Assembly: GCF_030013205.1 (NCBI RefSeq)
Contig: NZ_CP122648.1
Length of the DNA stretch: 64,000 bases
Strand: one strand, 5' to 3'
Origin: Escherichia coli
GTDB lineage: Bacteria > Pseudomonadota > Gammaproteobacteria > Enterobacterales > Enterobacteriaceae
Of this stretch, positions 2,810 to 64,000 are shown one piece after another. Every line of letters starts with the position of its first letter. The stretch's first letter is position 1. A model generated the notes under the pieces. That model worked only from the letters and a program-made list of their open reading frames with translations, was not told the origin of the DNA and did not search any database. The position numbers were made by a program, and so were the translations under genes.

Positions 2810-3397
2810 ATGAAAAAAAAGGTTCTGGCAATAGCTCTGGTAACGGTGTTTACCGGTACAGGTGTGGCGCAGGCTGCTGACGTAACAGCTCAGGCTGTAG
2901 CGACCTGGTCAGCAACAGCCAAAAAAGACACCACCAGTAAGCTGGTTGTGACGCCACTCGGTAGCCTGGCGTTCCAGTATGCCGAAGGCATTAAAGGTTT
3001 TAACTCATAGAAAGGTCTATTTGACGTAGCTATCGAGGGTGACTCAACGGCTACCGCCTTTAAACTGACCTCACGTCTTATCACCAACACCTTAACCCAG
3101 TTGGATACCTCAGGTTCCACACTGAATGTGGGCGTTGATTATAACGGCGCGGCAGTCGAAAAAACTGGCGATACCGTGATGATCGATACCGCCAACGGCG
3201 TACTGGGCGGCAACCTTAGCCCGCTGGCTAACGGTTACAATGCCAGCAATCGTACCACCGCACAGGATGGTTTCACTTTCTCCATCATCAGCGGCACCAC
3301 CAATGGTACCACCGCAGTAACCGATTACAGCACTCTACCGGAAGGCATCTGGAGCGGCGACGTTAGCGTACAGTTCGACGCGACCTGGACCAGTTAA
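2810..3397 (+). pseudogene. ecpA: E. coli common pilus major subunit EcpA, interrupted by in-frame amber codon (TAG at 3008..3010, codon 67)
   Basis: ORFs 2810..3010 and 3101..3397 are in the same frame and together give the EcpA sequence; the only break is TAG where Gln (CAG) is expected (..[17 protein letters not shown]..). Confidence 0.85.
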
Positions 3398-3453
3398 TCT
3401 CTCTGATGTACCAGCAGGGGTACCCCCCTGCTTTATTCCTGGACGGAATTGTT

Positions 3454-4122
3454 ATGAAAAAGCACCTTCTGCCTCTCACTCTGCTGTTTTCCGGAATATC
3501 TCCGGCCCAGGCGCTGGATGTCGGCGATATATCATCGTTTATGAACAGTGACAGCAGCACGCTGAGCAAAACGATCCAAAACAGTACCGACAGTGGCCGC
3601 CTCATCAATATCCGTCTCGAACGGCTCTCTTCACCGCTTGACGACGGGCAGGTTATCTCAATGGACAAGCCGGATGAGTTGCTACTCACTCCCGCCAGCT
3701 TGCTGCTACCCGCCCAAGCCAGCGAAGTGATCCGCTTCTTCTATAAGGGACCCGCAGATGAAAAAGAGCGCTACTACCGCATTGTCTGGTTTGATCAGGC
3801 CCTCAGTGATGCGCAGCGCGATAATGCCAACCGCAGCGCTGTGGCCACTGCTTCCGCCCGCATCGGCACCATTCTGGTCGTCGCCCCTCGCCAGGCGAAC
3901 TACCACTTTCAGTACGCCAACGGCTCCCTGACAAATACAGGAAATGCGACGCTGCGGATCCTCGCCTACGGCCCCTGCCTGAAAGCCGTCAATGGTAAGG
4001 AGTGTAAAGAGAATTACTACCTGATGCCGGGCAAGTCGCGTCGTTTTACCCGCGTGGACACTGCGGATAACAAAGGACGGGTTGCACTTTGGCAGGGTGA
4101 TAAGTTCATTCCCGTGAAATAG
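3454..4122 (+). CDS. ecpB: ECP pilus chaperone EcpB
   Basis: Signal peptide [20 protein letters not shown]; 222 aa; position in operon; track ORF 3406 has an upstream extension. Confidence 0.88.
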
Positions 4123-4147
4123 ATAGCTGTGCAGATGGATAACGACA

Positions 4148-61906: not shown

Positions 61907-62952
61907 GTCCGGGAAATCCCCCGGCAGATAAAGAGCAGAATGATCCGCTGGCACAGGTTTTCCATAATGCCTGCTCTTACAATTTTTTTGCGATGGCGGA
62001 GCTGTTGCACCGCCTGGCAAAGGGTGAAAAGGGGACGCCAGAATTATCCCTGCGTGACGATCCGGCACAGGAAACCCTGCGTTTCAGCGCCGATGCCAGC
62101 CTTGCGTTTCCCCTGAGTGATATCAGTGCGCTGAAACGGGATACGTCAGGGGCATTCAGGATGACCACTACCTTTATGGGGTTACAGGGGAGCCAGTCGC
62201 CTCTCCCCGGTTATTACCTCGATCACCTGGCCTGGAAAGCGGTACATGAACAAAGTCCGGTAGGTGATTTTCTGGATATGTTCAGCCACCGCCTGACCCA
62301 GTTTGTCTGGCATATCTGGCGTAAGTACCGCTATCACATCAGTTTTCGTAACGGCGGTGTGGATGCGTTCTCGCAGCGCATGTACTCCCTTGTTGGGCTG
62401 GGCCACCGCCAGCTTCGCGATAAGCTGGCGATTAATCACAGCAAAATGCTGGCGTATTCCGGGATCCTGGCAAATCCGGGACGATCCCCGGAAATAATCT
62501 GCGGTCTGGTGTCCCACTGTTTTGATTTGTCAGACGTGACGCTGCAAAACTGGCAACGTCGCAAGGTGGATATTGAACCGGATCAGCAAAATAGCCTGGG
62601 GAGTTATTCACTTAAAAATGGCGAAAAACTGGCAGGAAGATCGGTACTGGGCAACTTTGTTCTGGGTACACGGGTGCCCGATCTCAGCGGAAAATTCCAG
62701 CTCAGTATTACCAGCCTGACCCGAAAACAGTTCCTCTCTTTTCTGCCGTCCGGCGAAAACTTCCTGCCACTGACGATGTTTGTGTCCTTCATCCTGCGCG
62801 ATCAGCTTGCCTGGGACTTACATCTGGGGCTGGCGCCGGAGCAGGTGGGCGCAATGCGCCTGGGCGATAACAAAAGTGCGCTGCTGGGCTGGACCAGCTT
62901 CCTCGGCACACCGGAAGAACGACCTTCAGTCACCATCAGGGTACGGTCGTAA
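61864..62952 (+). CDS. tssG: Type VI secretion baseplate protein TssG
   Basis: 362 aa; overlaps the tssF 3' end; position and size. Confidence 0.8.
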   Translation: MEMDGKNRAASSYLSPGNPPADKEQNDPLAQVFHNACSYNFFAMAELLHRLAKGEKGTPELSLRDDPAQETLRFSADASLAFPLSDISALKRDTSGAFRMTTTFMGLQGSQSPLPGYYLDHLAWKAVHEQSPVGDFLDMFSHRLTQFVWHIWRKYRYHISFRNGGVDAFSQRMYSLVGLGHRQLRDKLAINHSKMLAYSGILANPGRSPEIICGLVSHCFDLSDVTLQNWQRRKVDIEPDQQNSLGSYSLKNGEKLAGRSVLGNFVLGTRVPDLSGKFQLSITSLTRKQFLSFLPSGENFLPLTMFVSFILRDQLAWDLHLGLAPEQVGAMRLGDNKSALLGWTSFLGTPEERPSVTIRVRS

Positions 62953-62955
62953 ATT

Positions 62956-64000
62956 ATGATAATCACGGAGCAGAATATGCCGGAAGAGAAACTACAGACG
63001 CTTTCATTGCAGGTCATTAACGGCAGTGAGCTGGAAAGCGGGCGGGCGGCGCGCTGTCTGTTCACACAGCTGGGAAATGTCGGCCATGGCCCCGAATGCC
63101 ACTGGTCGGTACAGGATCGTCAGCAGAGCATTCCGGCTCAGGCTTTTACCGTTATCCTGCACGATGGCACATTTTGTCTGCGCCCGCAGACGGCACAACT
63201 GTGGCTGAACCAGGCAAAAGTCACAGCAACATCAGACCTTATACAGCTGCGCCAGGGCGATTAGATCCAGATAGGGCGTCTGATGGTGAGGGTTCATCTG
63301 AACCGGGGAGATATCCCCCATTACGATGAGGAAATGGCCACTCCCGAAACCATCGTCACCAATCGCGATATGCTCACGGATACCCTGCTGTCAACGGAGG
63401 GTGCGCCACACTATCCGGGAATGACTCACCGGCATCAGCTTGCAGACACCGTGGTAAACGGTTTTTCTGCCGATCCACTCCAGGCTCTTCAGTCCGAAAG
63501 CCTGATTACCACGGGCGATCCGCTTTCAGGCATTGCGGCTGTCCGGCCATCGGCACCGCTGTCCGATCCGGCAAGTAATGGGGGGATCAATACGCCGTTT
63601 ATGGATCTGCCGCCCATTTATGCCAGCCCCGGCGATCGTAATGATGACGTCTCTGTGGCAGAAATGGCGCAACGCCACCTTGCGGTCACCCCCTTACTGC
63701 GCGGTCTCGGCGGTTCGCTTACCGTGAGCAATTCCGACGATGCGGATGATTTTCTGGAAGAGGCCGGACGAACGTTACAGGCCGCAATAAAAGGTCTGCT
63801 CGATTTGCAGCAACAGCGTAACAGCCTCTCAGACAAACATTTGCGCCCGCTGGAAGATAACCCGCTGCGCCTGAACATGGATTACGCCACCGCGCTCGAC
63901 GTGATGTTTGCCGAAGGTAAAAGTCCGGTACATCTGGCGGCTCCCGCCGCTGTCAGTGAAAGCCTGCGCAATGTCCGCCACCACGAAGAAGCTAACCGGG
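62956..64000 (+). pseudogene. tagH: T6SS FHA-domain protein TagH, in-frame amber at 63262..63264; runs past window end
   Basis: N-terminal FHA-like domain ends ...LIQLRQGD then TAG; the same frame stays open for the remaining 245 codons (IQIGRLMVRVHL...), matching the GD-x-I-x-IG end of FHA domains. Confidence 0.65.

Follow-up and report, generated by a model that had tools for sequence, protein, structure and literature searches.

Nested nonsense mutations in ecpA, an ISAs1 transposase gene, and tagH of pig-associated Escherichia coli

Do three premature stop codons that lie within 64 kb of one bacterial chromosome share a cause, or are they ordinary mutations that accumulated separately? 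The question is raised by a 64,000-nucleotide stretch of the Escherichia coli contig NZ_CP122648.1 (hereafter, the window), in which the pilin gene ecpA, the gene for an ISAs1-family transposase, and the type VI secretion system (T6SS)-associated gene tagH are each interrupted by a single in-frame stop. Our analysis indicates that these are very probably three independent and ordinary loss-of-function point mutations, which were fixed one by one by clonal descent in a pig lineage of the sequence type 1 (ST1) type. This lineage appears to comprise edema-disease Shiga toxin-producing E. coli (STEC) and post-weaning enterotoxigenic E. coli (ETEC).

The three stops and their distribution

The open reading frames, the one tRNA gene, and a megablast search assign the window to the E. 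coli chromosome, in which it spans from ykgR/ykgMO to tagH. Across its 64 kb, it is 99.997% identical to the genome of strain ETEC4067 (NZ_CP122685.1; pig feces, Belgium), from which it differs by one single-nucleotide polymorphism (SNP) and one indel. Strain W13-16 (NZ_CP080235.1; wild boar, France), an O139:H1 ST1 isolate according to PMC8798679, differs from it by 11 SNPs, one indel, and one IS1203 insertion. The interrupted genes and their stops are listed below; the label "internal stop" is that of the Prokaryotic Genome Annotation Pipeline (PGAP)/RefSeq annotation of the near-identical NZ_CP122685.1.

2810..3397 (+), ecpA pseudogene, encoding the major subunit of the E. coli common pilus (Mat/ECP); PGAP "internal stop"
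3008..3010 (+), amber codon of ecpA; codon 67, CAG (Gln67) to TAG, C>T
52743..53879 (-), ISAs1-family (H-repeat/ISEc1-like) transposase pseudogene, between yafV and an Rhs remnant; PGAP "internal stop"
52914..52916 (-), opal codon of the transposase gene; codon 322 of 378, TGC (Cys322) to TGA, C>A
62977..64000 (+), pseudogene of tagH, encoding a T6SS-associated FHA-domain protein and running past the window end (to 64257 in ETEC4067); PGAP "internal stop"
63262..63264 (+), amber codon of tagH; codon 96 of 426, GAG (Glu96) to TAG, G>T

All three frames are open apart from the stop, and each stop is one base away from a sense codon. Apart from the C>T change at codon 67, ecpA matches the intact gene of W13-16; TGC stands at codon 322 in another ISAs1 copy, from which the wild-type codon was called; and the tagH gene of CFSAN018748, a sister pig strain, is intact with GAG at codon 96. 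Each stop falls within a Pfam domain. That of ecpA lies inside MatB (aa 26-193 of EcpA), and that of the transposase lies inside DDE_Tnp_1 (aa 102-343), which is preceded by DDE_Tnp_1_assoc (aa 8-94). The stop in tagH cuts off the end of FHA (aa 35-100) and all of T6SS_FHA_C (aa 242-415). The first-pass annotation of this sequence had described each gene as carrying one in-frame stop in an otherwise intact frame, and both the coordinates and the single-base changes agree with that description. The PGAP-annotated pseudogenes of the porcine O139:H1 ST1/ETEC genomes (ETEC4067 and W13-16) are the same alleles at the same positions; relative to these RefSeq records, the window strain shows no structural difference and adds one change in hsdM and one in hsdS, which are described below. 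The three nonsense pseudogenes are ordinary and were already annotated.

Exact 81-mers centered on each stop were searched in 5,426 complete E. coli genomes. The ecpA TAG was found in 7 genomes and the tagH TAG in 17, the latter from pigs or wild boar and without CFSAN018748 among them. The exact 81-mer of the ISAs1 TGA occurs in 17 genomes, and ETEC1701 keeps the stop with one extra SNP, which brings the carriers to 18; these include the outgroup CFSAN018748, which has this stop only of the three. The O139:H1 strains carry the ISAs1 and tagH stops (W13-16 has both, together with an intact ecpA), the ETEC4067 group carries all three, and ecpA is intact in 10 of the 17 tagH-stop genomes. The allele sets are nested (7 < 17 < 18), and all carriers (17 to 18) come from pigs or wild boar, within an isolate collection biased toward veterinary sources.

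The simplest reading of this pattern is that the stops are heritable and represent not one event but three sequential fixations on one clonal line. An order of events can be proposed because the allele distribution is nested. The TGC>TGA change in the immobile ISAs1 transposase gene would have come first, before the split from CFSAN018748; GAG>TAG in tagH would have followed in the ancestor shared by the 17 ST1-like genomes; and CAG>TAG in ecpA would be very recent, marking a 7-genome subclade.

Functional context of the stops

The first two stops, in ISAs1 and tagH, would represent passive decay in DNA without purifying selection, namely, a fixed insertion sequence (IS) copy and a gutted T6SS cluster, and we infer that the changes were neutral. 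The ecpA stop alone would remove a working function. The following features provide the context.

57347..62952 (+), T6SS genes tssB, a small open reading frame (ORF), tssC, tssE, tssF, and tssG, with frames still open
54477..56666 (-), Rhs core-protein remnant lacking its N terminus
2193..8985 (+), remaining ecp operon (ecpR, ecpB, ecpC, ecpD, and ecpE), with every frame intact

Two deletions affect the T6SS cluster. The first has its junction at 56658-56666, where the alignment blocks overlap by 9 bp; compared with CFSAN018748, the 5' part of rhs, vgrG, and hcp are gone. The second lies just past the window (2886-5700 of the ETEC4067 stretch beyond it), where a truncated tssH is fused to a vasL remnant, and the 3' end of tssH (clpV), vasI, tssA, tssM, and the 5' part of vasL are missing. 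Both deletions are present in ETEC4067 and W13-16. This aspV-associated T6SS is predicted to be dead whatever tagH does, because the deletions took vgrG and hcp as well as the tssH 3' end, vasI, tssA, and tssM. The tagH stop, which had been read in the first pass as a loss of T6SS function, is not the disabling lesion, since the two deletions gut the cluster by themselves. In CFSAN018748, the cluster has an IS66/ISCro1 insertion in vgrG, an internal stop in hcp, a frameshift in tssC, and an internal stop in tssH (all within 7854-26479 of the stretch compared), and its tagH is intact. Because CFSAN018748 and the ST1 genomes carry different lesions, the same T6SS cluster appears to have been destroyed independently in two sister lineages. 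Separately, the block downstream of the junction contains 36 SNPs relative to CFSAN018748, approximately 28 of which are packed into approximately 1.2 kb (56660-57850), upstream of and within tssB, which suggests either a recombination tract or a divergent regulatory region.

The opal codon in the transposase gene is real; the copy itself is an old, fixed insertion beside yafV that is decaying at this site in unrelated strains also. At the same yafV site, strain 042 has fragments of ISAs1, among them one that a group II intron interrupts, and an O157 copy at another location carries a different stop, at codon 18. Recoding of the TGA (programmed read-through or selenocysteine) was considered and rejected, as codon 322 is TGC in other copies, and unrelated stops and truncations occur in ISAs1 elsewhere.

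In ecpA, by contrast with these two sites, the stop would be the only fresh loss in an otherwise intact operon, with ecpB to ecpE undamaged. Members of the ecpA-TAG subclade are predicted to be unable to make the ECP shaft, because the stop truncates the major pilin within MatB.

Several points weigh against three unconnected, neutral events. The tagH stop and both T6SS deletions co-occur in every genome examined that has one of them, and either could have come first; the loss of ecpA could have been selected rather than neutral. The local density of stops is also nominally high. We sampled the PGAP annotation of ETEC4067 in eight evenly spaced 50-kb segments and two further stretches, which amounted to 492 kb outside the window. 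This sample contained 37 pseudogene features, of which 3 had an "internal stop" (hyfD, yjgN, and a third gene that is frameshifted as well), corresponding to a background of 0.39 internal stops per 64 kb. Against this background, three or more stops in one window have a Poisson probability of 0.007, and the conditional binomial P value is 0.023. A purely uniform neutral process misfits this density, and accessory-gene content must be invoked.

The clustering is real and not remarkable: approximately 0.6 windows this dense are expected per genome, the window was chosen post hoc for the stops it contains, and two of these are located in accessory DNA that is dead. Post hoc selection and accessory-gene content explain the excess. 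As side observations, hyfD (encoding a hydrogenase-4 subunit; 8504-9943 of a sampled stretch) and yjgN (35048-36244 of another) are chromosomal backbone (non-island) genes that bear internal stops in ETEC4067. A mutator background was also considered, since two of the stops arose by G:C>T:A substitution, and was rejected; mutY is annotated as intact, and the 11 SNPs relative to W13-16 comprise six transitions and five transversions, too few to speak for a mutator.

Host restriction, selection, and suppression as alternatives

The alternative that survives best is the early-stage reductive evolution of a host-restricted clone, in which the stops would be part of a genome-wide loss, driven by a narrow niche and a small effective population size, as in Shigella and Salmonella Typhi. 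Such a reading covers the loss of surface, secretion, defense, and mobile-element functions. We regard it as possible, somewhat short of probable. Pseudogene accumulation together with IS expansion is known from the host-restricted enterobacteria Shigella, Salmonella Typhi, and Yersinia pestis, and several signals in the lineage resemble this pattern. The restriction of the carriers to pigs and wild boar is one; the parallel wrecking of the T6SS in two sister lineages and the nonsense mutations in hyfD and yjgN are others. IS200C has bloomed to 19 to 23 copies in the ST1-like genomes and to 31 in CFSAN018748, compared with a median of 1 and a maximum of 35 among E. coli genomes carrying it. 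Of the cellulose locus, fragments of bcsG and bcsC remain, directly adjoining each other (ETEC4067, 207657-211540), with bcsE, bcsF, bcsR, bcsQ, bcsA, bcsB, and bcsZ deleted, in agreement with the absence of "bcs" from the ST1 inventories in PMC8798679.

6929-7387, 8954-9412, 17101-17559, and 42271-42729 (stretch-local coordinates), IS200C copies in the sampled stretches
24850-27740, hsdM/hsdS region of the type I restriction-modification (R-M) system, site of the only SNP and the only indel relative to ETEC4067
26477..27740 (+), hsdS, frameshifted at codons 4-5 by one additional A at 26486 (A4 for A3, in the hsdM/hsdS overlap) and thereby stopped at codon 8

Two lesions have struck the type I R-M genes, IS1203 within hsdR in W13-16 and, independently, the 5' frameshift of hsdS in the window strain. 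The latter is possibly a fourth lesion, private to this strain, and a TTG at 26493 could restart hsdS translation five residues in; the accompanying SNP at 25661 produces HsdM R271H. Finally, the ETEC4067 samples contain 7.5 to 8.5 pseudogene features per 100 kb. In a control of four random 50-kb segments (200 kb) of strain 042, we found six pseudogene features and zero internal stops, that is, 3.0 per 100 kb, making the density in ETEC4067 approximately 2.5 to 2.8 times that of strain 042.

These signals are offset by others. Both samples, of 492 kb and 200 kb, are small, the features counted concentrate in islands, prophages, and IS-split genes, and some of the genes labeled "frameshifted" may reflect errors in assembly or the programmed frameshifting of IS1. 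Extrapolation to the whole genome yields approximately 380 pseudogene features, many being remnants of IS elements or prophages, and a modest 30 to 55 genes with internal stops. The genome has not shrunk (5.1 Mb; chromosomes of 4.98 to 5.18 Mb), and the region of the human strain 042 syntenic with the window is equally pseudogene rich (6 features in 50 kb, versus 9 in the 64-kb window). Host restriction itself is deduced from a biased isolate collection. On whether the genome-wide pseudogene rate is ordinary, the sampled data point both ways: a nominal local excess (P of 0.007 to 0.023) and a density above that of strain 042 stand against small samples and clustered counts.

Compared with Shigella, Salmonella Typhi, and Y. 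pestis, the lineage is alike in its stepwise inactivation of surface structures and secretion by nonsense mutation, deletion, and IS insertion, in its bloom of an IS200-type element, and in its parallel loss of pathways. It is unlike them in the much smaller scale of loss, the unshrunk genome, and a core metabolism that is largely intact in the sampled regions. The suggestion made from the sequence alone, that pilus, T6SS, and mobile-element functions are undergoing reductive loss as in host-restricted lineages, is borne out in part. Stepwise stops in a lineage sampled exclusively from pigs and wild boar, the IS200C bloom, the bcs deletion, and the pseudogene density speak for ongoing loss; two of the three stops, on the other hand, lie in already defunct DNA, and the likeness extends to mild reductive signs on a scale far below that of the classic host-restricted pathogens. 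A mild, ongoing decay of the lineage is plausible. The stronger proposal, that the porcine ST1-type clone of edema-disease STEC and F18 ETEC is in an early and unrecognized phase of genome decay driven by host restriction, with the three stops as time-stamped markers, is tentative and rather doubtful; its basis would be the IS200C bloom and the way in which the aspV T6SS, the common pilus, cellulose synthesis, and type I restriction were lost, stepwise and in parallel.

Adaptive gene loss is a less likely explanation. It holds that the ecpA stop, and perhaps the tagH stop, was selected in pig colonizers that use plasmid-borne F18 or F4 fimbriae and would profit from shedding the common pilus or part of the T6SS, and we consider it improbable. 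Two observations would fit selection: no more than 11 SNPs separate the window from W13-16 over 64 kb, the ecpA stop among them, and sister lineages lost the T6SS in parallel. However, nonsense changes make up 3.0 to 3.6% of random coding substitutions, and at least one among 11 SNPs is expected by chance in approximately 27% of cases. Moreover, the other ecp genes are untouched, 10 of the 17 tagH-stop genomes retain an intact ecpA, and no recurrent independent ecpA lesions were observed.

An amber-suppressor background, in which a tRNA with a CUA anticodon would read both TAG codons and keep ecpA and tagH functional, had been raised in the first pass, and we give it almost no credence. Nothing speaks for it other than the two amber codons among the three stops. 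TAG accounts for 40 to 48% of the possible nonsense substitutions given the codon usage of these genes, and at least two ambers out of three are therefore expected with a probability of approximately 0.41. The 5,426 genomes were queried with tRNA-Gln2, Tyr, Ser(CGA), Leu(CAA), and Trp sequences given a CUA anticodon; these sequences were validated by best matches of 98.7 to 98.9%, equal to exactly one mismatch. No Tyr-CUA or Trp-CUA allele was found in any of the genomes, and Ser-CUA was found in DSM 498 only. No full-length Leu-CUA was found in them either, seven Leu matches of at least 99% being apparently partial copies and the full-length ones reaching at most 98.8%. Gln-CUA occurs in 155 genomes, and among the 30 matches listed, all are laboratory or K-12-type strains. 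In ETEC4067, the anticodons were read directly (Gln ttg, ttg, and ctg; serU cga; leuX caa). The lineage resembles laboratory strains with supE, supF, supD, or supP alleles in its TAG codons only, all of the tested anticodons being wild type. In addition, the two ambers arose at different times, and the T6SS is dead with or without read-through of tagH. Suppression is refuted for the single-step CUA routes tested (Gln, Tyr, Ser, Leu, and Trp). We also observed that the metT-leuW-gln cluster of ETEC4067 (18109-18700 of the stretch sampled) contains only three tRNA-Gln genes (ttg, ttg, and ctg); K-12 presumably has four, in which case the lineage would have a single tRNA-Gln(CUG) gene.

A sequencing or assembly artifact has a negligible chance of explaining the stops, because the same alleles recur in 7, 17, and 18 independently assembled complete genomes, from Belgium, France, and Denmark and from other submitters' pig isolates (K_EC180 and EC556/571/581), including the PacBio long-read genome of W13-16, and because the changes are substitutions rather than homopolymer indels; the first pass had named such an artifact as a possible refutation.

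Older decay, neighboring genes, and implications

The gene order of the window and the remaining features are as follows.

First part, ecp operon, paoABCD, then a thrW-associated island with AbiE and type I R-M genes
Second part, proBA, phoE, crl, gpt, pepD, rtcB-prfH, and dinB-yafNOP
Third part, Flag-2 scar, fadE, yafV, the ISAs1 element, the Rhs remnant, and the first half of the T6SS cluster
19563-28902, thrW island, with an AbiEi/AbiEii toxin-antitoxin pair, complete hsdRMS, an ash-family gene, a ykgR fragment, and integrase remnants only
28608..28902 (+), fragments of a helix-turn-helix protein gene and an integrase gene beside thrW, remnants of the island carrying AbiE and type I R-M
42109..44578, Flag-2 deletion scar, in which lafU (42109-42894, -) abuts an lfhA/FlhA fragment without its N terminus (42860-44578, +)
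37706-39456 (-), prfH (release factor H) and its RtcB-family partner gene

The window also contains older decay, as had been noted in the first pass. The lfhA/lafU pair and the integrase remnant are present; a MocA-like remnant was not located, either by Pfam scans of candidate small ORFs or in the PGAP annotation. Of the small ORFs scanned, 36837-37118 and 19388-19660 gave no Pfam match, and 37135-37698 is YdjM-like. Further old lesions comprise a frameshifted ykgL, the ykgR fragment, and the Rhs fragment.

The Flag-2 remnant pair lies between yafL/hicAB and dinB. The lfhA'-'lafU scar left by deletion of Flag-2 (lateral flagella) is known from K-12 and most E. coli strains, and the same remnant pair occurs here; the cluster is whole in strain 042. 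This scar is old decay that is widely shared in E. coli. Being ancient and species-wide, it is unlike the lineage-specific decay described above and is not part of it.

The thrW island is a stranded defense island, and thrW (anticodon CGT) is the sole tRNA gene in the window. The prfH gene and its RtcB-family partner are both intact here and unrelated to the nonsense lesions; we take them to be truncated or pseudogenized in K-12. Elsewhere in ETEC4067, the chromosomal kdsB is annotated as frameshifted (30729-31476 of a sampled stretch), and a second kdsB lies in a kps capsule cluster (19866-20606 of another), pointing to either a functional replacement or an assembly error.

The three stops have little importance beyond strain biology. 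Within it, the nested alleles could serve as simple lineage markers, and a subclade of these pig pathogens is predicted to be unable to build the ECP shaft. The listing of "T6SS" in the chromosomal virulence inventory of O139:H1 ST1 (PMC8798679) may count this non-functional cluster, the aspV locus being the one considered here. If the lineage-wide decay signal holds, ST1 would offer a useful young model of E. coli host adaptation, a modest and incremental addition to what is known of the process.

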